A stretch of DNA of 64,000 nucleotides from Candidatus Niyogibacteria bacterium. Lineage in GTDB: Bacteria > Patescibacteriota > Minisyncoccia > HO2-45-28. The position numbers and the translations under genes were made by a program. Positions within the stretch are counted from its first letter, which is position 1. Every line of letters begins with the position of its first letter. The stretch is taken from positions 217,294 through 281,293 of the forward strand of contig CP066691.1 in NCBI GenBank assembly GCA_016432485.1, written 5' to 3'. Positions 10,317 through 58,300 of this stretch are shown here, one piece after another. Under the pieces are notes generated by a model, which had not been told where the DNA came from, searched no databases, and was given only the letters and a program-made list of their open reading frames with translations.

Positions 10317-11472
10317 AAATCAAATAAAATCCAATTAAATCCAAATAGGGTTTATCTAAAATTTGGTCATAATTTTTAAAAAACCCCTTCATCTTATCAG
10401 ATGTTTGTTCAATGATTGAAAATGAACGGCCGTGCGCGGTGTAACGCTTGAAAGACGGGTCACTCAAAGCTTCGTGGAATGCGGATATTTTTCCATGGCC
10501 GGTCAACATAATTTTTTCGGGCGCCAAGTCCGGCAGTACGCGCTTTTCCAGCGCCTCTTTAAATAAATTCTGCCATTCTTTGACCGCTTCTTTCAATACC
10601 ACCTCAAGAGATCTTTTAAATTTATCATCAAGTTTATTTTCCATATAATTTGAAATCAGCTCCGAAACTTCGTTTAAATCCAGGCGCAGCGCCGAACCGA
10701 CACGGCGCGCCACGTAATTAATACCTCGGCCGAAAGAAGCCATTTTTAACATCTGGCCGCCTTTAATTAAAATTAAATCGGTTATCTCTCCTCCGATATC
10801 CACAACGAATAAATCTTTATAGCCCTCTCGCAGAAAGATATCGAAAAGAACCCGCGGCGAGCTTCTGAACTCCGTGGATTTAACGCCGTGATTTTCAAGA
10901 AGTTTTTTTATGCCGGCGGCCGCTTCGCTAAAAATGGCTGAGATATAAATTGAGACGAAAAATTCCACAGCCCGTTTGCCTAAAATATTTTGACGCGGCT
11001 CCCGGACCGGATAACCGTTTAATTTAGCGCTCATTATGAGTGAACGCGTCAAAGCCAAATCTTCCTGCAAGAAGCCGAAATAAGAAGATGTGTCTTTTTT
11101 AAAACTATTTTCTTGCGCAAGCATAATTTCGGCGATAAATTTTTTATCTATAACAATTGGCGGGTCAAATTTTTTAGACACTAAACGTGAATCGGAAAAA
11201 TACCACGGCGAAGAAAAAACGACCATCGCTTCATCGGCTTTCCGGCCGCTTTTCTCATATTCCCACATCACATTCTCAATCAACGCGTATATTTTTCGCC
11301 AGAGACCGCGTAAATTCACTTCCGGCATAATCACATTTTCGGACCGAAACAACCTTTTAACATCTATCTTTTCTCCGGAGCCGAAAGACGCCAGGACGCA
11401 ATTTACCCTGGAACTTCCTATGTCAAAAATCAGCTTTTGCTTTACCGATTTTCCCGCGCCGAATAAAAACAT
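10291..11472 (-). CDS. Actin-fold ATPase of the FtsA/PilM family (393 aa)
   Basis: N-terminal LIFDIGSSRV phosphate-1 motif and DIGGEITDLILIKGG phosphate-2 motif. Confidence 0.55.
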   Translation of the reverse strand: MFLFGAGKSVKQKLIFDIGSSRVNCVLASFGSGEKIDVKRLFRSENVIMPEVNLRGLWRKIYALIENVMWEYEKSGRKADEAMVVFSSPWYFSDSRLVSKKFDPPIVIDKKFIAEIMLAQENSFKKDTSSYFGFLQEDLALTRSLIMSAKLNGYPVREPRQNILGKRAVEFFVSIYISAIFSEAAAGIKKLLENHGVKSTEFRSSPRVLFDIFLREGYKDLFVVDIGGEITDLILIKGGQMLKMASFGRGINYVARRVGSALRLDLNEVSELISNYMENKLDDKFKRSLEVVLKEAVKEWQNLFKEALEKRVLPDLAPEKIMLTGHGKISAFHEALSDPSFKRYTAHGRSFSIIEQTSDKMKGFFKNYDQILDKPYLDLIGFYLIYAANYAAK

Positions 11473-26350: not shown

Positions 26351-26504
26351 GGAGCGTCTCCCTAATGTCTTTGCAATATTCCAATTCTGACCTTAACATA
26401 AATAATCGCTCCGTAAAAGCGGGCGTTTTTGGGCGAAAAATTTTGGCGGGATATATTTGAAAATGATTAGAAAATTTACTGGTTTAGCGGCAAATTTTCT
26501 TTCT

Positions 26505-26545
26505 GGAAATAAAAGGAGGGGCGCAGCTAAGTGCTGCACCCCTCG
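26505..26545 (-). terminator. Rho-independent terminator of GC-rich cassette A
   Basis: Minus-strand reading GGGGTGCAGCACTTAGCTGCGCCCC then TCCTTTTATTT. Confidence 0.7.
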
Positions 26546-26552
26546 TGGACCG

Positions 26553-27146
26553 CTAGACGCGGCGCTTATTGAGGATTCTGCGGATTTTTTCCCTCGCCGT
26601 CGCCTTGGCACAGAACGGCCAGCCGTTCTTGAGCTCAAGGCAGAGCTCATCCAGATCAACCTTCAGGCCCTCGAGATTTCTGGTGCCTGACTGCATCCGC
26701 CCGAGTTCCGCCTCGAGCTCGGCGCGGGACATACCGCCTTGCTGTCCTTCGTAGCTCTGTTCGGGACGGATGGAGCCGACCCTGATCTTGCGGTAAAGCT
26801 CGAGCAAATCCTCCATCCTCTTCGCTCTGATGCGGATCATCCTGCCGCCACCGCTCTTGTCAACCTCCGCTTCTGCCGACTTGTGACGGTAGATGCCAAT
26901 TTCTCGTTGGGTATCCGCGTATTCGTGAAGCGAGACCTCATCAACGATGTCCGTTACTGCCTCAGGAATCGGGTCGGTCAGTTTGCCGAGGGAGATATAC
27001 CAACGCCCCTTGTCACGTAAGAGCTTGACGCCGGAAATCTCGTGCTCGTCCCACTCCTGAGGCGGTTTCCCACCCCACCTCTTCCTGGTTGTGAAGCCCT
27101 CGAGCTCCTGAACTTTGTTGCCCTTCAAGTACACGTTGACCGACAT
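26553..27146 (-). CDS. Hypothetical protein (197 aa), conspicuously GC-rich (about 55-60% by eye, against roughly 40-45% around it) with high-GC codon usage. Likely foreign
   Basis: Start MSVNVYLKGNKV with RBS AGAGGAG; the ORF track's upstream extension is rejected; own consensus promoter and terminator. Confidence 0.6.
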   Translation of the reverse strand: MSVNVYLKGNKVQELEGFTTRKRWGGKPPQEWDEHEISGVKLLRDKGRWYISLGKLTDPIPEAVTDIVDEVSLHEYADTQREIGIYRHKSAEAEVDKSGGGRMIRIRAKRMEDLLELYRKIRVGSIRPEQSYEGQQGGMSRAELEAELGRMQSGTRNLEGLKVDLDELCLELKNGWPFCAKATAREKIRRILNKRRV

Positions 27147-27261
27147 GATGCTTCTCCTCTCTTTGTGTCGCCAGGATTTCGTCAGGCTTTCTGGGCCTAT
27201 CCGTTCCGTGGTCGACTGGTTGGAATACAGTCCCACTGGACTATCCAATGAAACTATCAAA

Positions 27262-27290
27262 AGTATAGCATAGTGCAACTATTCTGTCAA
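27262..27290 (-). promoter_or_regulatory. Consensus sigma70 promoter on the minus strand: TTGACA-N17-TGcTATACT, driving cassette A
   Basis: fwd tgtcaa 27285-27290 and agtata 27262-27267, spacer 17, extended -10 TG. Confidence 0.7.
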
Positions 27291-27398
27291 GTTCGTTGGC
27301 AATAAGAAACACCTTTGTTGCAAGCTATTTTTGACCCTAACTCTTATGAAAAAAATTCTTTTGCCCTTATTGATAAATCCTTTTTGGCAGGGATGCAA

Positions 27399-27430
27399 GG
27401 AATCGCCCCGCAGCTGCGGGGTTGGAGATC
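27399..27430. repeat. 30-nt hairpin repeat copy 1 (ggaatcgCCCCGCAGCTGCGGGGttggaga), directly abutting the 3' end of tRNA-Trp
   Basis: Perfect 16-bp palindrome CCCCGCAGCTGCGGGG; second copy at 27530-27560. Confidence 0.85.
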
Positions 27431-27432
27431 TT

Positions 27433-27505
27433 TGCGGGAGCTGAGGGAATCGGACCCCCGACCGCGGTTTTGGAGACCGCCGTTATACCACTTAACTAAG
27501 CTCCC
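27433..27505 (-). tRNA. tRNA-Trp (anticodon CCA), discriminator G
   Basis: Hand-folded cloverleaf: GGGAGCT-TA-GTTA-AGTGGTA-TAAC-G-GCGGT-CTCCAAA-ACCGC-GGTC-GGGGG-TCCGATT-CCCTC-AGCTCCC-G. Confidence 0.85.
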
Positions 27506-27529
27506 TTAAAATTTTTAATCAACTTTATG

Positions 27530-27590
27530 GAATCGCCTCGCAGCTGCGGGGTTGGAGACCGACGTTCTGCCATTGAACCACACCCCCCCT
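27530..27590 (-). pseudogene. Truncated tRNA-like 5' half (acceptor stem, D arm and start of the anticodon stem, ending CTCCAA), fused at the anticodon loop to copy 2 of the 30-nt hairpin repeat
   Basis: Minus-strand reading GGGGGGTGTGGTTCAATGGCAGAACGTCGG then TCTCCAACCCCGCAGCTGCGAGGCGATTCC; no matching 3' acceptor strand anywhere nearby. Confidence 0.6.
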
Positions 27591-28033
27591 TGCGAAAAAA
27601 TAAGATTAAGCCGTTATTTTGGCTTCTTTGTGCAAAGTATGCTTTTTGCACCATTTGCGTCGCGGCTCGCTCACCTCAAGGGATTCGCTCGCGCTCCCCA
27701 GACACCTCTCGGTTTCTGGCGCTCGCTCCGCTCGCTGTTTTCCTACACGGGGAAAACTACAGTTTTCCCCGACCCCCTTTCGGGCAAATGGCACAAGGAA
27801 ACTCCTCATATAATAAATATATCAAAAATCAAGCAGTGATTTTAGATTCCTTATGAAGCGTATGTTTCTTGCACCATTTGCAATACTTTTTGAGCTCAAT
27901 TTTTCGCTCAACTTTTTTCTTGTTTTTGGTGCTGTAATAGTTCCCCCGTTTGCAAACGGAGCATTTTAGTTTGAATAAGTTCGGTTGCGGCATAATGTCT
28001 TATTTTAACAAAAAATAATAAAAAATCAACTTG

Positions 28034-28105
28034 AGCCGGAGGGGAGAATCGAACTCCCGACCTCATTCTTACCAAGAATGCGTTCTGCCACTGAACTACT
28101 CCGGC
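28034..28105 (-). tRNA. tRNA-Thr (anticodon GGT)
   Basis: GCCGGAG-TA-GTTC-AGTGGCA-GAAC-G-CATTC-TTGGTAA-GAATG-AGGTC-GGGAG-TTCGATT-CTCCC-CTCCGGC-T. Confidence 0.85.
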
Positions 28106-28124
28106 CTTTTCCCACTTTACAATA

Positions 28125-28152
28125 AAAAACGGGCGAATCAAAGATTCGCCCT
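28125..28152 (-). terminator. Rho-independent terminator (GGGCGAATC-tttg-GATTCGCCC plus a T-run) after the secreted-protein gene
   Basis: 9-bp perfect stem followed by TTTTTTATT on the minus strand. Confidence 0.75.
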
Positions 28153-28153
28153 A

Positions 28154-28753
28154 TCAGCCGCACTCATTCGGAGCATTTTGGAATTTATAGGATTTAAGCG
28201 ACATCGGAATAATTTCACTGCTTTTGAAATCGGGCGCGACATCAATAATATTCCCCGCGCACCGAGCGTACCAATAAAATATTGTGCCGCGCCAAGAGTG
28301 TTTGAGGCCGAGAAAGTACGCGTCTATTACCGCGCGGATTTTCAGCGCCTTAAAAACACCGGCGGGGACACGATGCGTTTCTTCCGCCAAAACTTCAAAA
28401 TCTGCTTTCACAAGCGCCGCCCGGCTCCATTTTCGCCAAGACCATTTCTTACCCGGATAAAGCGGGAAATCCAGTTTTTTATCTCCCCCGATCCGATTCA
28501 ATTGACTGTCGTAATTAATTTGTCCGCTTCCGATTTTAGTCGTCTCTTCAAAAACATAAATATCGCCTTGCTCCTTAATCATCTTCAAAGATATTTCGCT
28601 GGTGTTTCTCCGGTCAATAAAAATCCATTCATCTCCGACCTCAAAACGAGGGGGTTCGGTTGAGCCGATTTTAATGCCGGCTTCCAAATAATTAAAAATG
28701 AAAACCGATAAAAATACCGCCGCCATCCAAAGAAAGACGAGGCGCATCGCCAT
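28154..28753 (-). CDS. Hypothetical secreted protein (199 aa, signal peptide), native-like base composition
   Basis: N-terminal MRLVFLWMAAVFLSVFIFNYLEA; RBS GGAAGGAG; the second ATG at 28747 is the likelier start. Confidence 0.6.
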   Translation of the reverse strand: MAMRLVFLWMAAVFLSVFIFNYLEAGIKIGSTEPPRFEVGDEWIFIDRRNTSEISLKMIKEQGDIYVFEETTKIGSGQINYDSQLNRIGGDKKLDFPLYPGKKWSWRKWSRAALVKADFEVLAEETHRVPAGVFKALKIRAVIDAYFLGLKHSWRGTIFYWYARCAGNIIDVAPDFKSSEIIPMSLKSYKFQNAPNECG

Positions 28754-28814
28754 TCTCCTTCCTCAACGCAAAATATAAAGTGCTTTCAAAATGTATTTTA
28801 TGAAAAATTTAAGA

Positions 28815-28900
28815 GAAAATCAAAAAGAAGAAACCCACCAGATTGCGACCTGGTGGGTTCTGACCGAGCGCGAAGCTCGGCCGGTTAGGATTGGTCAGAA
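28815..28900 (-). terminator. Terminator module R1, one of two ~80-nt near-identical copies. Minus-strand reading: a CCGAGC/GCTCGG hairpin, then CCCACCAG-gtcgcaat-CTGGTGGG, then TTTCTTCTTTTTGATTTT
   Basis: Direct repeat of 29605-29692 with about 90% identity over about 75 nt. Confidence 0.8.
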
Positions 28901-28918
28901 CGCTCATCTCGTGGCTGG

Positions 28919-29107
28919 TTATGTGCAGAGCCATTTATTCATGTAATAAAAAGCGCTTCCAAAGAGTATATAGGTCAGCTTGTGGGTGAACTGGGCCCAC
29001 GCACCGACATCGGTGAACTTGACGCCGATGAAATAATCGATCACCGTGACGAACGCCGAAGCGATAAGCAGGAAAACGAGATAGCCGAGGAGCTTCTTGG
29101 CCTTCAT
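28919..29107 (-). CDS. Small hydrophobic protein (62 aa, 1-2 TM helices)
   Basis: MKAKKLLGYLVFLLIASAFVTVIDYFIGV...; RBS TAAGGAGA 7 nt upstream; structured leader; followed by module R1. Confidence 0.5.
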   Translation of the reverse strand: MKAKKLLGYLVFLLIASAFVTVIDYFIGVKFTDVGAWAQFTHKLTYILFGSAFYYMNKWLCT

Positions 29108-29246
29108 TATTTTGTCTCCTTAAGGTGCTGGATTACCACGATTCCCTCGTGGCAGGGTTACCGGATTTACAGGGTTTTCACCATGATTCCGATATCATTA
29201 ATAACAGTGTATTACATAATGAAAGTCAAGACAAACAAAAAAGGGT

Positions 29247-29558
29247 CTAAAATGCTGTTTGGATCGTATATTTTCCAACTTTTGTGGGCCAAGTTTTATT
29301 GGCAAGTCCCGGACTTCTTTTGCCGACCAAGTCATTTCTATAAGGTTCATTTTGGATGAAACCCATGGCAATGGTTGCGTTACATTCGGTTTCTTTGTGC
29401 AAAGAGCGGATATATTGTTCGGCTTCTTTAAGAATTGCTTCTGTGGGCCCTTCTCGAAAATCTATTTCTTCAAGATGATCAAAATCGCAGCAAGCGCACT
29501 TGCCGATAACAAATAGGCCCGTACCGACGCCTCCGGCCACGGCATATTCCTCCATCAA
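29247..29558 (-). CDS. Hypothetical Cys-rich protein (103 aa, ...GKCACCDFDH..., ...ETECNATIAMGF...)
   Basis: Preceded by a consensus promoter at 29580-29607; the competing plus-strand ORF 28982..29359 is rejected because it runs antisense across two better-supported minus-strand units. Confidence 0.45.
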   Translation of the reverse strand: MMEEYAVAGGVGTGLFVIGKCACCDFDHLEEIDFREGPTEAILKEAEQYIRSLHKETECNATIAMGFIQNEPYRNDLVGKRSPGLANKTWPTKVGKYTIQTAF

Positions 29559-29579
29559 ACTTTAAAGAATTCCAACGCT

Positions 29580-29607
29580 ATTATAATATTTTTTGGGAAG
29601 CTGTCAA
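29580..29607 (-). promoter_or_regulatory. Consensus sigma70 promoter on the minus strand, TTGACA-N16-TATAAT
   Basis: fwd tgtcaa 29602-29607, attata 29580-29585. Confidence 0.65.
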
Positions 29608-29692
29608 CAAAAAATCAAAAAGAAGAAACCCACCAGATTGCGACCTGATGGGTTCTGACCGAGCGCGAAGCTCGGCGGTTGGGGTTGGTTGG
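29605..29692 (-). terminator. Terminator module R2, duplicate of R1, directly after GC-rich ORF B
   Basis: Same hairpin and T-run as R1, with a G-to-A change in the stem. Confidence 0.8.
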
Positions 29693-29693
29693 C

Positions 29694-29951
29694 CTAGCGA
29701 GGACCGACGCGCCATCCGATCATGTTGGTGACTCGAATGGGCTCGACCAGTGCATCGGTGGTGAACTCGAGTCCACCTTTCGGATGGCGGTACGAGCTGA
29801 TCCGTATCGTCGCGCCGGATAGGATGTCCACCACGAAGAGTTCGCCCGCCGGGTTCGTGAAAACCCGCAGGTTGCCACCCTCGTAGTGGATCGGGAACTG
29901 GTCGCCCCCGAACCTGTCCTCCTTCGGCTTTTCCGTCGCGGTCTCTGGCAT
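29694..29951 (-). CDS. Hypothetical protein (85 aa), GC-rich and foreign-looking
   Basis: Start MPETATEK with a perfect RBS AAAGGAGAT; the ORF track extends to 29999; ...FGGDQFPIHYEGGNLRVFTNPAGELFVVDIL... Confidence 0.55.
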   Translation of the reverse strand: MPETATEKPKEDRFGGDQFPIHYEGGNLRVFTNPAGELFVVDILSGATIRISSYRHPKGGLEFTTDALVEPIRVTNMIGWRVGPR

Positions 29952-29984
29952 TGCGGCATCTCCTTTCATGGTTGGGGTTGAGTT

Positions 29985-30035
29985 CCTACGACACAGCAAC
30001 CAAGAAAATAAAATTTCTAAGCTATTGTGTCGTAG
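29985..30035. promoter_or_regulatory. 11-bp inverted repeat (CCTACGACACA...TGTGTCGTAGG) with a 29-nt loop, in the 5' leader of ORF B between its promoter and its RBS
   Basis: Perfect arms; candidate operator, attenuator or processing stem. Confidence 0.5.
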
Positions 30036-30082
30036 GAAAATAGGCCAAAATTCACAAGGTGCTATTTTAACTTACTGCTAGA

Positions 30083-30111
30083 AGTATAGCATATCTGTCT
30101 TATCATGTCAA
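30083..30111 (-). promoter_or_regulatory. Consensus sigma70 promoter on the minus strand, TTGACA-N17-TGcTATACT. Its -10 region is identical to that of promoter 27262-27290
   Basis: fwd tgtcaa 30106-30111 and agtatagca 30083-30091. Confidence 0.7.
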
Positions 30112-30136
30112 GCTATTGCCACTCACTTTGTTCGTG

Positions 30137-30220
30137 TGCATGGGGAGGGATTCGAACCCCCGAAGCCCATAGGGCGCTTGGTTTACAGCCAAGTGCGATT
30201 GACCACTCCGCCACCCATGC
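30137..30220 (-). tRNA. tRNA-Tyr (anticodon GTA), long variable arm, discriminator A
   Basis: GCATGGG-TG-GCG-G-AGTGGTCAAT-CGC-A-CTTGG-CTGTAAA-CCAAG-(variable arm CGCCCTATGGGCTTC)-GGGGG-TTCGAAT-CCCTC-CCCATGC-A. Confidence 0.8.
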
Positions 30221-32950: not shown

Positions 32951-34213
32951 TTAAAGATTTTGCGGGCGTTCAACAAGTTCCGCTTCCACTTTTAATTCTT
33001 CGGCGTTGCGCAATACTTTCAATTCCACTTTTTCACCCACTCTCCTTTGGCTTATCAATTTGGCTAAAGTGTTATCTTTATTCACTCTCACGCCGCCGAA
33101 CTCTAATATTATATCACCTTCTTTCAGGCCTGCGGCCTGCGCCGGAGAATTGTTTATAATCGCGGTCCGGCCTTCGCCCGCAATCAAGAGCGCGCCGTAA
33201 TCAACCGACAATTTCTTTTCTTCTTTAATTTGCGGCGTAACTGAAAGATAATGAACGCCCAGATAGGCATAGCTTATCTTTCCGAAATCGCGTACGTCCG
33301 AGACGGCTTTTTTCACGGAATTTATCGGCAAAGCGAATCCGATGCTCTGGGCTTCGGAGGCGACAGCAGTATTAATGCCGATGGCCCGTCCGGCCGAATC
33401 CAGCAGCGGACCGCCGGAATTTCCAGGGTTGATCGCGGCATCGGTTTGGATTACTTCCTGCAAAACTTCAGGGCCGGAAGCGGATCCGGAAGCGACGATC
33501 GTCCGGCTAAGTCCGGCGATGACTCCGACTGAAACCGTATTTTGAAATTCACCAAGAGCGTTGCCGATGGCCACGACTGTCTGACCGACTTTAAGATTGT
33601 CTGAATTTCCAAGCGAAATAAAAGCAAACCCGCCGCCGTCCACTTTCAAAATCGCGACGTCCTGAACCGAATCTCGCGCCAAAACTTCAGCCTTCATTTT
33701 CCGGCCGTCGTTCATTAAAACCGTGTATTCAACGGTTTTATCTTCAACCACGTGGCGATTGGTGACCAGATATCCATCCTCAGTTACAAAAAATCCGGAG
33801 CCGGCTGAAATCTGCCTTTTTTCAGTTCCTTTTTGGCGGTATTGCGGAACTAAAATCTGCGGCATCTCTCCTGAAAAAAACCGCCGGAAGAAATCATCGT
33901 TTTCAAAGGGATTGATGAAATATTGTTCTATGACCGGAACGTCTTTGGAAGCGGTAATGCTGACCACCGCCGGCAAAGTGTCGGCAACAAGCTTGATAAT
34001 TAAACCTTCCGAAGTAATAATAAAATCCGAATTTTGCTTTTGGTTATCCGACTTATTGTCTATCACTTTCTCAATCACCCGATTGATGGTTTGGGTTATT
34101 GGAGCCGGCGCCTGATTAACCAAAGTCACGCTGACAATGCCGGTAACAAGCGAAGTTATAAAACTCACCAAAAGAACCAGCAAAACTAATTGTGTTTTTG
34201 TCAGATTTTCCAT
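32951..34213 (-). CDS. htrA: HtrA/DegP-family serine protease with an N-terminal membrane anchor and a PDZ domain
   Basis: GSGFFVTEDGYLVTNRHVV (His), D, GNSGGPL (Ser) triad context; C-terminal PDZ. Confidence 0.85.
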   Translation of the reverse strand: MENLTKTQLVLLVLLVSFITSLVTGIVSVTLVNQAPAPITQTINRVIEKVIDNKSDNQKQNSDFIITSEGLIIKLVADTLPAVVSITASKDVPVIEQYFINPFENDDFFRRFFSGEMPQILVPQYRQKGTEKRQISAGSGFFVTEDGYLVTNRHVVEDKTVEYTVLMNDGRKMKAEVLARDSVQDVAILKVDGGGFAFISLGNSDNLKVGQTVVAIGNALGEFQNTVSVGVIAGLSRTIVASGSASGPEVLQEVIQTDAAINPGNSGGPLLDSAGRAIGINTAVASEAQSIGFALPINSVKKAVSDVRDFGKISYAYLGVHYLSVTPQIKEEKKLSVDYGALLIAGEGRTAIINNSPAQAAGLKEGDIILEFGGVRVNKDNTLAKLISQRRVGEKVELKVLRNAEELKVEAELVERPQNL

Positions 34214-38475: not shown

Positions 38476-38589
38476 TATAGCTTACTCCGACACCCCACGA
38501 CACTCTTGTTATTTATTGACCAGATCGCACGAATTGTTATACTAAATTCAGTAATTGATACATCAAAACTTCGAACAGGGAGGCAGAAA

Positions 38590-38829
38590 ATGACGCTACA
38601 CCTTATCAACAACGGATGGATTCAACAATTTCTGATTTCACAGCCAGAAAGTGGTATGGGTTTTCAACAGATAGAACTTCATTTGAAGGACGGGAGAATA
38701 ATCCCGCAGCTTACAGCTGCTAACGCCGAATTCATTGAAATTCCGAGTCACTGTGGAAATATCACCGAGGACGACATTTTAAGAATCGCGATGCTTCATG
38801 GAGGGGTTGGACAAAAACCAACACCTTAA
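38590..38829 (+). CDS. Hypothetical protein (79 aa)
   Basis: RBS GGGAGG 7 nt upstream; promoter TTGACC-N16-TATACT at about 38530-38560; terminator GCCTGCC-ttt-GGCAGGTC plus T6 at 38844-38870; the longer 38278 ORF is rejected. Confidence 0.5.
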   Translation: MTLHLINNGWIQQFLISQPESGMGFQQIELHLKDGRIIPQLTAANAEFIEIPSHCGNITEDDILRIAMLHGGVGQKPTP

Positions 38830-38964
38830 ATGTTTTTCAATATGGCCTGCCTTTGGCAGGTCTTTTTTATCCTCACGCGCCGTGACATCTCTTGATGTGT
38901 GATACGGATGGAAACATACAATAATCTCAATTTAGTTCAAAAAGTTTTGGTAAGCAAACTGGTA

Positions 38965-39012
38965 TAAAAAGACGGGTTAGCAGGTTTCCCCACTAACCCG
39001 TCTGTGTTGTTT
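38965..39012 (-). terminator. Rho-independent terminator (10-bp perfect stem GACGGGTTAG / CTAACCCGTC) after the GC-rich ORF 39047-39439
   Basis: Hairpin followed by TTTTTAT on the minus strand. Confidence 0.7.
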
Positions 39013-39046
39013 GCCGCATTGCACGGCCCTACTTCTGGCTGGCGAG

Positions 39047-39439
39047 CTAGGCCAGAAGCTTCTGGAGTGCCGACACCTCTGGTGTCACGATGTTGATGGG
39101 CTTGCAGAGGAACGCAATCAGCTCCTCGAGCGGGTGCCGGGGACCGGGCAGCAGGGCGCTGAAAACGTTCTCCTTGACAAGGAGCGCGCCGTCCGCGTCC
39201 ATGATGCGGACCTCGCAGTAACTGCCCTCCTCCCAGTGCTTGGCCTCCACCCGCACGGAAACGACGCAGGCACCGTTGGCGCCGAAGAGGCGGTAGAGAT
39301 TGGGATCGCTCTCGTCTTTCTCCGGGCGCAGGGCGCAGAACTTCTCGGCCACCTTCTCCCACAACCGCATCACCATGGTTCGGTTCTGTTGATCGTAATA
39401 TCTCATGAAATCACCTCCTCCCTTTTTTGTCTCGGTCAT
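39047..39439 (-). CDS. Hypothetical protein (119-130 aa), strongly GC-rich (about 60% by eye). Foreign-looking mini-cassette inserted downstream of sufS
   Basis: Two in-frame starts: 39439 (RBS AAAGGAG, spacing 11) and 39406 (RBS GGGAGGAGGTGA, spacing 4). Confidence 0.55.
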   Translation of the reverse strand: MTETKKGGGDFMRYYDQQNRTMVMRLWEKVAEKFCALRPEKDESDPNLYRLFGANGACVVSVRVEAKHWEEGSYCEVRIMDADGALLVKENVFSALLPGPRHPLEELIAFLCKPINIVTPEVSALQKLLA

Positions 39440-39460
39440 TTATGTGCTACTCCTTTATAT

Positions 39461-39489
39461 ATGCTACACCCTTATTGTTATTTTGTCAA
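39461..39489 (-). promoter_or_regulatory. Consensus-like promoter on the minus strand, TTGACA-N17-TAGCAT(ATA)
   Basis: fwd tgtcaa 39484-39489 and atgcta 39461-39466. Confidence 0.6.
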
Positions 39490-39510
39490 GCCCACAACGT
39501 TTATATTTAT

Positions 39511-57800: not shown

Positions 57801-57829
57801 TTGACAAAATAATGACTTTGATATATAAT
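57801..57829 (+). promoter_or_regulatory. Perfect consensus sigma70 promoter TTGACA-N17-TATAAT
   Basis: ttgaca 57801-57806, tataat 57824-57829. Confidence 0.7.
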
Positions 57830-57878
57830 TAAGTAGGAAAATCTGGTTGCTGTACACCAACCATAGGGAGAAAAACAA

Positions 57879-58040
57879 ATGGAAGAAGATAGGTGGTTTC
57901 TTGTTTCGCTGTTTGGAACGTTGCTACTGATGTTACTCCCGCTCATCGTCCAGATCATCGCCCCACAGCTCCATCAAGACCCTTCCCCGGCCCACATCTA
58001 CCCCGCTGACCGCGTCTTGGAACAACTGTCGTTTCGGTGA
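57879..58040 (+). CDS. Small hydrophobic peptide (53 aa, one TM helix), GC-rich. MEEDRWFLVSLFGTLLLMLLPLIVQIIAPQLHQDPSPAHIYPADRVLEQLSFR
   Basis: RBS GGGAG 9 nt upstream; found by hand (below the ORF-track cutoff); the minus-strand ORFs 57776..57958 and 57933..58145 are rejected. Confidence 0.45.
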   Translation: MEEDRWFLVSLFGTLLLMLLPLIVQIIAPQLHQDPSPAHIYPADRVLEQLSFR

Positions 58041-58300
58041 TCGCCTCGCGGTCAATAGAACAGGAACAAGCGGGTTCGGCAGAAAACTTCTGAACCCGCT
58101 CCCACCAAAGTTTTTAAGAAGTGGTCCAGGTCCGACTTGGACCAAATATCTCGAAAATTTTGGTGGGAAGTTCTTTTACAACTTCAACATAATCCACGAC
58201 AGCAGATGGGAAATAACAAATTATTCTTTTAACTATTTTGTTTCTCGTCTGCTGTCGTGAGGACAGCAAGCTAAAACTCAAGCTAGAAGCGTGAGGCTTC
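58041..58300 (+). ncRNA. Highly structured 260-nt intergenic segment with three strong stems: AGCGGGTTC/GAACCCGCT; CCCACCAAAGTTTT/AAAATTTTGGTGGG enclosing GGTCCA/TGGACC; and a 12-bp CACGACAGCAGA/TCTGCTGTCGTG. Candidate leader or sRNA
   Basis: Stems identified by eye; no protein-coding potential with an RBS. Confidence 0.3.

Follow-up and report, generated by a model that had tools for sequence, protein, structure and literature searches.

The locus described here is a cluster of tRNA genes and of the ribosomal protein gene rpmG, which lies in a 64,000-nucleotide (nt) stretch of DNA (hereafter the window) from a metagenome-assembled genome (MAG) of Candidatus Niyogibacteria, a tiny groundwater bacterium of the candidate phyla radiation (CPR). 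Every relevant feature of the locus is carried by the minus strand, on which the order from 5' to 3' is clpB, tRNA-Tyr, a short GC-rich open reading frame (ORF B), a two-hairpin terminator module (D1), the gene of a small cysteine-containing protein (Cys protein), an ORF of 62 amino acids (aa), a second D1 copy, a 199-aa ORF, tRNA-Thr, rpmG, a GC-rich spacer, a dead rpmG end, a broken tRNA-Trp, an intact tRNA-Trp and a second GC-rich unit, cassette A; 3' of the terminator of A follow a 166-aa ORF, a HAD hydrolase, a permease and IMPDH (Table 1). Both ORF A (HYY55_01230) and ORF B (HYY55_01265) are annotated as hypothetical proteins. A previous reading of this DNA, made from its letters alone and referred to below as the sequence-only reading, regarded the interval between tRNA-Tyr and tRNA-Trp as an accessory islet acquired by horizontal transfer. 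The comparisons presented here indicate that the locus is a cluster of housekeeping genes, tRNAs and rpmG, which several autonomous promoter-ORF-terminator units interrupt, and not one acquired block.

Judged by sequence signals, the units qualify as autonomous transcription units, in which a near-consensus sigma-70 promoter with an extended -10 region, a hairpin in the 5' untranslated region (5' UTR), a strong Shine-Dalgarno sequence, a short ORF and an intrinsic terminator follow one another. In this respect the sequence-only reading described the locus well: both tRNA genes and all five minus-strand ORFs are found where it had placed them, the self-contained modules are real, intrinsic hairpins follow A and B as their own terminators, and TG-extended TTGACA-N17 promoters precede both, with a 12-mer (TATGCTATACTT) that is identical in the two -10 regions and occurs nowhere else in the window without a mismatch. 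Perfect TTGACA-N16-18-TATAMT sites number five in the 64 kb, against 0.01 expected, and three of the five fall within this 4-kb region. The promoter duplication that had been taken as a sign of acquisition is a weak argument, since near-consensus extended -10 promoters also precede the homologues in other genomes. Elsewhere in the window, a plus-strand segment (57801-58100) holds a perfect TTGACA-N17-TATAAT promoter, a 53-aa hydrophobic membrane ORF (57879-58040; GC content at third codon positions, GC3, 0.65) and then a GC hairpin, and thus forms a further small unit of the self-contained kind.

The composite nature of the locus was revealed by a sister genome (GCA_964574495.1, contig CAZNNT010000017.1), which was reached through its 97% identical copy of the 199-aa protein and follows the window collinearly between ~40 kb and 22.7 kb, with a nucleotide identity of 92-97%. 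In the sister, a single B terminator is followed directly by the 199-aa gene, and the window segment 29610-28895, with both the Cys-protein gene and the 62-aa ORF, is missing. Its rpmG ends in the sequence that corresponds to the dead copy in the window and runs directly into an intact tRNA-Trp of the ancestral type, the 5' half of which matches the broken one of the window, and the 166-aa gene lies 54 nt farther on. Between flanks that are 97% identical, the sister thus has neither the 223-nt insertion in rpmG nor a second tRNA-Trp, and no part of cassette A. In addition, the sister has a unit of its own (promoter, 125-aa ORF and terminator) between tRNA-Tyr and B, and its tRNA-Tyr is a clearly different allele. 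Three units differ in presence between two near-identical genomes, which demonstrates, at the level of sequence comparison, real cassette turnover.

The direction of these changes can be read from more distant relatives. A 27-nt piece of the dead tRNA-Trp (27552-27578) is 100% identical to the tRNA-Trp of the distant relative L015, and the distal D1 copy with its downstream flank is the orthologue of the B terminator in the sister, L015 and L017; from this identity and this orthology it follows that the state of the window is derived. The ancestral backbone would have consisted of tRNA-Tyr, B, its terminator, tRNA-Thr, rpmG and tRNA-Trp, with the window-specific pieces as putative insertions into it. 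The sequence-only reading had supposed that relatives usually keep only tuf/secE-nusG at this place, and neither the sister nor the distant Paceibacterota relative has those genes there. On the far side of clpB, an HtrA-like protease gene (32951-34213, minus strand) shows a synonymous divergence (dS) of 0.68 from the sister, compared with 0.06 for the adjacent clpB, which points to a separate recombination tract adjoining the locus.

At the tRNA-Trp end of the cluster, comparison with its closest homologue, L045, resolves cassette A as a discrete unit of ~0.93 kb, seated at a destroyed tRNA-Trp. The two align at 78% DNA identity over 965 nt (69% aa identity for the protein), and the alignment takes in ~95 nt upstream of the -35 element, part of them nearly identical, and ~60 nt past the terminator. 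The context of L045 is unrelated, with truB downstream and no tRNA gene on the contig. In the window, the ancestral tRNA-Trp ends and the cassette begins 1-2 nt farther on; around the latter lie tRNA-derived direct repeats of the form ATCCC(T)GCCAAAA, which match at 12 of 13 positions, a value reached in 8 of 2000 shuffles. Integration at a tRNA gene, as the sequence-only reading proposed, is thus borne out for A, which sits exactly at the 3' end of the disrupted tRNA-Trp; the single islet laid down by one integration is not, since the pieces differ in history.

Several traces of these events had been overlooked, namely the D1 direct repeat, the dead rpmG 3' end, the split tRNA-Trp and a 30-nt repeat with a 16-nt palindrome. 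The dead tRNA-Trp is not called by ARAGORN and scores 21 bits in Rfam against a threshold of 29. The two copies of the 30-nt direct repeat, R1 and R2, bracket the intact tRNA-Trp, and we infer that this palindrome-bearing repeat is a recombination scar. In the sister (L044, ~11046-11062), a stretch resembling the repeat occurs in inverted form (GGGATTCGCCTCGCGAC), ~40 nt 3' of the intact tRNA-Trp. Another scar is found in rpmG, where the replacement 3' end (27825-27881) is 77% identical to the old one; the 166-nt spacer behind it (27659-27824) contains repeated GAGCGAGC-like words and an GGGGAAAAC/GTTTTCCCC hairpin, and it matched nothing in Rfam or in any fetched locus. Twelve independent Logan contigs, from several runs, reproduce this A side of the locus, with the dead rpmG end, the split tRNA-Trp, both palindromes and the new tRNA-Trp.

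A different history is suggested for unit B. In the distant Paceibacterota loci L015 and L016, where B is 64% identical, tRNA-Tyr is followed by a 94-aa GC-rich ORF, B, a homologous two-hairpin terminator, tRNA-Thr(TGT), tRNA-Thr(GGT), rpmG, tRNA-Trp and another GC-rich ORF. At this tRNA-Tyr site, B is thus found in the sister as well as in a distant genome, in each case with the GC shift seen in the window and with a terminator homologous to that of the window, and for this reason it is not the recent acquisition for which it had been taken; the sequence-only reading had itself named such a finding in relatives as one that would count against it. Compared with the sister, B shows 87% DNA and 72.6% protein identity, a dS of 0.195 and a ratio of nonsynonymous to synonymous divergence (dN/dS) of 0.88, while the comparison genes gave 0.062 and 0.08 (clpB) and 0.066 and 0.16 (the 199-aa gene). 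B therefore appears in these comparisons as an old resident of the tRNA-Tyr site that evolves fast. The second hairpin of its terminator (GAACCCACCA..GTC.CAA..CTGGTGGGTT; window 28831-28860 and 29626-29655, L015 6255-6348, L017 6254-6336) is conserved in sequence across hosts of 0.37-0.49 GC; such conservation is seldom met in intrinsic terminators and suggests some further function, for example as a 3'-UTR RNA or a recombination site.

As the distal D1 copy is the orthologue of the B terminator of the relatives, the segment 29610-28895 is best explained as an insertion: the pair formed by the Cys-protein gene and the 62-aa ORF would have entered between B and the original B terminator, and it is now flanked by two D1 copies. 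The Cys protein belongs to a family of 14 representatives with the common motif MAGGVGTG...CxxC...H...C. The 103-aa ORF listed for it is present; its start, however, is most likely GTG 29540, which gives 97 aa, because the homologues begin at query residues 7-8 and GGAGGAA lies just upstream. The structured leader of the 62-aa ORF found no match in Rfam and is not a copy of the leader motif of A described below. The 199-aa protein is a lineage-specific orphan, represented by the sister copy and one fragment only. The description of the interval as accessory DNA therefore holds for unit A and for the Cys-protein/62-aa segment, both absent from the sister; the segment as a whole is not purely accessory, since the housekeeping genes tRNA-Thr and rpmG lie inside it.

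The base composition of A and B was one of the arguments for horizontal transfer. ORF A has a GC content of 0.574 and a GC3 of 0.737, and ORF B has 0.616 and 0.791, which lie 4-5 standard deviations from the mean GC3 of the 74 window ORFs used as reference (0.471, standard deviation 0.060), so that the GC-richness itself was correctly observed. As evidence of transfer, however, it does not serve, because it is constant for the A and B families in all hosts examined. In the A family, the gene has a GC content of 0.49-0.56 and the rest of the locus 0.37-0.54, the gene exceeding its surroundings in each of the 11 loci, by a mean of 0.09; in the B family, the gene is GC-richer in all five loci outside the window, and likewise in the sister, where B has 0.61 in a locus of 0.45. 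GC-richness is thus a family trait, which can neither date an acquisition nor indicate a recent donor. A third GC-rich mini-unit was noticed on the minus strand of the window (promoter 39489-39461; 130-aa ORF 39439-39047, GC3 0.81; terminator 39003-38970). It lies inside a ~985-nt segment (38520-39503) that is absent from the sister and has an AT-rich direct repeat of 12/13 nt at its bounds; this segment, which also holds a convergent ~79-aa ORF on the plus strand, is situated downstream of a sufS-like gene, with no adjoining tRNA.

Scans against Pfam, PHROG, PADLOC and NCBIfam gave no family for any of the five proteins, in agreement with the statement that their function is unrecognisable; eight further cargo ORFs from the window and related loci gave nothing above threshold in the same collections, and ribosomal protein L33, the rpmG product, was the sole match of the scans. 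No defence, toxin, phage or moron signal came to light for the cargo, to which the sequence-only reading had tentatively assigned such roles. No homology was found between A and the 189-aa ORF of L015, between A and the 130-aa ORF of the third mini-unit, or between the latter and the 125-aa ORF of the sister. The A family comprises 29 relatives at 36-70% identity, and those with names or titles are all from CPR bacteria (Campbellbacteria, Parcubacteria, Saccharibacteria, Patescibacteria), except for one MAG labelled Gammaproteobacteria. The AlphaFold2 model of A is confident, with a predicted local distance difference test (pLDDT) score of 88.6; it has residues 1-125 folded as a beta-rich N-domain, besides an invariant linker (about GSIRPEESYEGQQ) and a long helical hairpin ending in WPFC; neither a convincing structural nor a convincing sequence relative was found in the PDB, and a fold search of BFVD returned nothing. 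The B family comprises 32 relatives from Patescibacteria at 53-68% identity, and the likewise confident model of B (pLDDT 83.8) predicts an all-beta meander of seven strands with a disordered N-tail, for which a fold search and a family sequence profile found no convincing structural or sequence relative in the PDB. According to these models, A may be a cytoplasmic protein with a beta-domain and a coiled coil, and B a small all-beta protein. At one locus of the A family (L013, 3792-7797), the homologue, complete with promoter, leader and terminator, lies on the opposite strand within the ATP synthase operon, between atpD and atpG, and the atpD of this locus is fused to an NYN domain.

In addition to the protein, the A family shares a structured leader RNA. 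Within the ~115-nt leader, a motif of ~50 nt is found upstream of every A homologue with readable upstream sequence, on the sense strand and 11-28 nt before the start codon. Its consensus is GUCG-A-CCA(C)GGA-ACGGAU-[P3, loop CCAGNAA]-GACGAAA-UCC-UGG-CGAC, which is laid out as helix P1 (GUCG/CGAC), helix P2, a conserved internal loop (ACGGAU/GACGAAA) and helix P3 with the loop CCAGNAA. Over 11 sequences aligned by MAFFT and free of gaps, pairing holds in 97.6% of the cells, and compensatory (double) changes are seen in 7 of the 15 pairs; none of 500 shuffles reached these values, and slid partners paired in 22-45%. The covariance model R1, with 20 distinct sequences, has 93% of the cells paired and 9 of 15 pairs compensatory, and it detects the motif in all A loci, those of the Saccharibacteria type included. 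RNAalifold, applied to the raw MAFFT alignment, recovered only a partial structure because bulges shift the register, and it was replaced by the gap-free subset and the covariance model. The minimum-free-energy fold of the window leader gave the same helices together with the 5'-proximal hairpin P0.

Comparison with the 4227 families of Rfam 15 gave no match to the motif at the gathering threshold or at E<=5. That the motif is an RNA, and neither a peptide nor a double-stranded DNA operator, is indicated by its many G-U pairs and by a stop codon that lies in frame in L012. An N-terminal extension of A, as which the leader is annotated in two database entries, was rejected in view of the L012 stop and the compensatory substitutions in the helices; a K-turn in the internal loop was rejected too, as it is not conserved in the Saccharibacteria-type sequences. 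The motif is present in a single copy in the window, and the leaders of B and of the 62-aa ORF were discarded as diverged copies, since model R1 with its filters off gave one hit in 25.5-31 kb. A second site of model R1 was detected in L034, L035 and L036, before an unrelated 112-aa membrane-anchored ORF that is itself GC3-rich. In L034 (4736-5298, minus strand), an ORF that reads as a MazF/PemK-like toxin and a 78-aa partner stand between two motif-bearing genes. Taken together, the leader carries a well-supported motif, which we regard as a new candidate cis-regulatory 5'-UTR RNA, absent from Rfam 15 and so far confined to CPR bacteria.

Table 1. Features of the tRNA/rpmG cluster in window coordinates, ordered along the minus strand; L-numbers refer to relatives mentioned in the text.
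Feature	Position	Strand	Remarks
clpB	32915-30240	-	upstream neighbour of tRNA-Tyr
tRNA-Tyr(GTA)	30136-30220	-	85.5% identical to tRNA-Tyr of distant relative L015
Promoter of unit B	30083-30111	-	TTGACA-N17-TATACT, TG-extended -10
Hairpin with 25-nt arms	29983-30038	-	within the ~130-nt 5' UTR of B
ORF B, 85 aa	29694-29951	-	GC3 0.79
Proximal D1 copy (two-hairpin terminator module)	29611-29689	-	intrinsic terminator 29626-29655
Promoter of Cys-protein unit	29580-29607	-	perfect TTGACA-N16-TATAAT
Cys protein (CxxC..H..C), 97 aa	29247-29540	-	from GTG 29540; listed as 103 aa from TTG 29558
Structured leader of 62-aa ORF	29108-29225	-	minimum free energy -33.3 kcal/mol, z -3.1, 0/200 shuffles as good
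62-aa ORF	28919-29107	-	two hydrophobic segments; GC3 0.70
Distal D1 copy	28816-28895	-	terminator 28831-28860; 95% identical to proximal copy (~80-100-nt direct repeat)
199-aa protein	28154-28753	-	hydrophobic N-terminus; own terminator; ordinary GC
tRNA-Thr(GGT)	28033-28105	-	missed by the sequence-only reading
rpmG (ribosomal protein L33)	27829-27993	-	PF00471, E 9.9e-18, profile positions 3-47 of 47; missed by the sequence-only reading
Window-specific insertion in rpmG 3' end, 223 nt	27659-27881	-	replacement 3' end + 166-nt GC-rich spacer
Displaced old rpmG 3' end	27602-27658	-	inside a 115-nt stretch 94% identical to the live rpmG end + tRNA-Trp start of the sister
Dead ancestral tRNA-Trp + R1	27529-27590	-	5' half 27590-27552 stops in the anticodon loop
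Repeat R1, 30 nt	27529-27558	-	perfect palindrome CCCCGCAGCTGCGRGG; direct repeat of R2 (27399-27428)
Intact tRNA-Trp(CCA)	27434-27505	-	other sequence type, ~75% identical to ancestral type
Repeat R2 + displaced tRNA-Trp 3' end (TTGCATCCCTGCC)	27386-27428	-	R2 = TCTCCAA + 16-nt palindrome CCCCGCAGCTGCGGGG + CGATTCC
Left direct repeat ATCCCTGCCAAAA	27382-27394	-	old tRNA-Trp 3' end + junction
Cassette A, ~0.93 kb	26460-27384	-	alignable to L045 including non-coding flanks
Promoter of unit A	27262-27290	-	TTGACA-N17-TATACT, TG-extended -10
5'-proximal hairpin P0 of A leader	27227-27257	-	present, with different sequence, in Parcubacteria-type homologues
Structured 5'-UTR motif, ~50 nt (P1-P2-internal loop-P3)	27167-27216	-	covariance model R1, 80 bits
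ORF A, 197 aa	26553-27146	-	GC3 0.74
Intrinsic terminator of A	26516-26544	-	12-bp stem + T-run; conserved in L045, L018
Right direct repeat ATCCC-GCCAAAA	26441-26452	-	just outside the L045-homologous region

The explanation that we favour, and that we hold to be fairly probable when taken as a whole, is that the cluster is a recombination hotspot at which autonomous single-gene modules are gained, lost and exchanged among close strains. The pieces would differ in age, B being an old resident, the 199-aa gene specific to this genome and its sister, and cassette A derived. Cassette A would have been inserted at the 3' end of the ancestral tRNA-Trp, and the tRNA destroyed in this way would have been functionally replaced by a complete tRNA-Trp of another type. 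Crossovers probably took place at the 3' ends of resident genes (rpmG, tRNA-Trp) and at shared terminator modules, which accounts for each insertion being bracketed by a duplicated gene end. The agent may have been a site-specific recombinase acting in trans, or else homologous or illegitimate recombination of DNA that had been taken up. Both families also lie close to tRNA or transfer-messenger RNA (tmRNA) genes more often than the ~7% expected: such a gene is found no farther than 700 nt away at 5 of the 14 loci of A (binomial P 0.0017) and at 4 of the 6 loci of B (binomial P 0.0003). Expression of A would be controlled post-transcriptionally by the ~50-nt irregular hairpin just upstream of the ribosome-binding site. 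We prefer the possibility that a trans factor, either a ligand or a protein and possibly protein A itself, stabilises P1; the 3' strand of the stabilised P1 would then be kept from an alternative helix that closes the region of the ribosome-binding site and start codon, and translation would be tuned accordingly.

Several observations weigh against this explanation. Mobility is proposed with no enzyme in sight, as no integrase, transposase or other recombinase Pfam family was found among the called genes of ~16.5-40 kb. With 12/13 nt, the direct repeats that flank A are short and only of moderate significance, and the "empty site" of the sister is not a clean excision product, since 53 nt are found there and 19 nt in the window. 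The junction between B and the Cys-protein gene has no independent support, the Logan contigs ending inside the D1 repeat. There is one close sister genome, and the choice between deletion and insertion next to B rests on two outgroups. As for the leader, the alternative helix (GRCRC/GYGYC, formed by the 3' strand of P1 and 5 nt before the AUG, with the Shine-Dalgarno sequence looped) is 88.9% paired, has two compensatory pairs, was equalled in 29 of 500 shuffles and occurs in the Parcubacteria-type subgroup only, with 3 of 5 pairs formed in the window.

The main rival, to which we give some weight while considering it unlikely, is that the units are vertically inherited CPR genes of very high expression, with GC3, promoters, ribosome-binding sites and hairpins shaped by selection for strong expression and stable mRNA, and that the differences from the sister are due to deletion and decay in rapidly evolving intergenic DNA, and not to mobility. 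It accommodates the family-wide GC offset (11 of 11 A loci and 5 of 5 B loci outside the window), the synteny of B across distant relatives and the lack of links to recombinases, phages and plasmids. Hairpins at the 5' terminus are, moreover, a known mRNA-stabilising device. However, rpmG and clpB have no such GC3, the strongly GC-rich units in the window being A, B and the 130-aa unit, and two of these three are missing from the sister. The GC content of the A family also holds at 0.49-0.56 while that of its hosts ranges over 0.37-0.54. The intact tRNA-Trp of the sister stands against a split gene and a second copy in the window, a state from which deletion cannot recreate it, and the A unit recurs with its non-coding flanks in the different context of L045. 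Vertical descent of highly expressed genes thus explains the family-wide GC, and not the split tRNA-Trp, the relocation in L045 or the absences in the sister.

It is very unlikely that the whole interval from tRNA-Tyr to tRNA-Trp is one horizontally acquired islet with defence, toxin or moron genes, as first proposed. The atypical GC of A and B, the flanking tRNAs, the parts absent from the sister and the ORFs without known function would all suit such an islet, yet it would have to include tRNA-Thr and rpmG, as well as a B whose site is shared by the sister and a distant relative. Its segments differ in presence and in divergence (dS 0.066 for the 199-aa gene, 0.195 for B), and neither PADLOC, PHROG, phage or plasmid matches nor a nearby integrase support it. 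With the sister and the outgroups compared, a single islet is already contradicted.

We consider it highly improbable that the repeats and duplicated gene ends are an assembly artefact, that is, a chimeric MAG joined across strains. The breaks of independent Logan contigs from this organism all fall at ~27687, in the 166-nt spacer, and at ~29618, in the D1 repeat, and the B/Cys-protein junction is left unconfirmed by these contigs. Such breaks are compatible with repeats or with strain heterogeneity in the sample; an 80-nt repeat of 95% identity is enough to explain them, the 12 contigs reproduce the A side, and the duplicated pieces are only 75-77% identical, unlike those of strain-collapse artefacts. 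Least probable of all is a prophage remnant, with the units as morons left behind by a decayed CPR phage at tRNA-Trp and tRNA-Tyr, since the promoter-ORF-terminator design with deviating GC and the tRNA neighbours with partial tRNA duplications, which would fit it, are met by the lack of any phage gene in or near the region, by no PHROG match, by no BFVD fold match for A, by no IMG/VR locus that encodes A or B or matches the RNA motif or the att-like repeat, and by no tblastn match of A or B in 50,697 phage records; a tblastn search of a plasmid collection found no relatives of A either.

Going beyond the recombination hotspot itself, one may speculate, though we find it rather doubtful, that CPR bacteria possess a class of minimal mobile modules not described before, to which A, B and units of the 130-aa type would belong. 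These would be sub-kilobase, integrase-less and self-expressing units of one gene each, with promoter, structured leader, ORF and conserved terminator, and would keep their own base composition while passing among hosts whose GC differs widely. Their insertion sites would be the 3' ends of genes, either for tRNA or tmRNA or of other kinds, and a replacement tRNA would sometimes come with them; in the leader one would then have a riboswitch class that is new, or else the site to which a dedicated regulator binds.

CPR bacteria, or Patescibacteria, have tiny genomes, and their gene exchange is poorly understood. The locus offers a base-by-base example of strain-level turnover of tiny self-expressing modules, in which tRNA genes are replaced as well, and this turnover occurs at the ends of tRNA genes and rpmG with no recombinase seen among the called genes over the range given above. 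The near-constant GC content of the A family in hosts of 37-54% GC is a warning against reading GC deviation as recent transfer. In addition, the analysis yields two conserved protein families without a known fold match and a well-supported new candidate for a cis-regulatory RNA motif, restricted so far to CPR bacteria, which provides a handle for finding its ligand or regulator and hence the biology of the A genes. Further work may be most rewarding on this motif and on the mechanism of module turnover in CPR bacteria.

Some features of the locus recall known systems. The leader of A resembles riboswitches and ribosomal-protein leaders in being a conserved covarying hairpin of the 5' UTR, with conserved internal and terminal loops and a possible alternative helix in the region of the ribosome-binding site; unlike them, it belongs to no Rfam 15 family and is tied so far to two gene families of CPR bacteria. 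Integron cassettes are likewise small single-ORF modules in series with conserved hairpin 3' ends and strain-variable content. The likeness is only superficial. Integron cassettes have promoterless ORFs, and here a promoter precedes every unit; at the 3' side stand G+C hairpins with T-runs, which lack the R''/R' cores (GTTRRRY) of attC sites, no integrase lies within ~±10 kb and no IntI or attI nearby, and housekeeping tRNAs and rpmG are interspersed. The classical moron is an autonomous promoter-gene-terminator unit with deviating GC in a prophage. A and B share with it the promoter and terminator around one ORF and the deviating composition, but they lie outside any prophage and have no viral relatives by sequence or fold.

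A further comparison is with genomic islands integrated in tRNA or tmRNA genes, for which we follow the definition used in Islander (PMC4383910). The locus behaves as a tRNA-gene integration hotspot, yet two defining features of such islands, the integrase and the regeneration of a hybrid tRNA, are lacking. Integrase-less derivatives of these islands do exist, and are known as cis-mobilisable elements (CIMEs). Cassette A differs from an island of the Islander type in that the unit is ~0.9 kb long, has one cargo gene and encodes no integrase, and in that tRNA-Trp was destroyed and a second complete tRNA substituted instead of a hybrid being regenerated. Moreover, one scar of the locus lies in the 3' end of rpmG, and the GC deviation is a stable family trait and not a donor signature. 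What the locus has in common with these islands is the position of cassette A at a tRNA 3' end, the displaced tRNA fragments and direct repeats at the ends (with moderate support), an atypical composition, a presence that varies among close relatives, and families enriched near tRNA and tmRNA genes.

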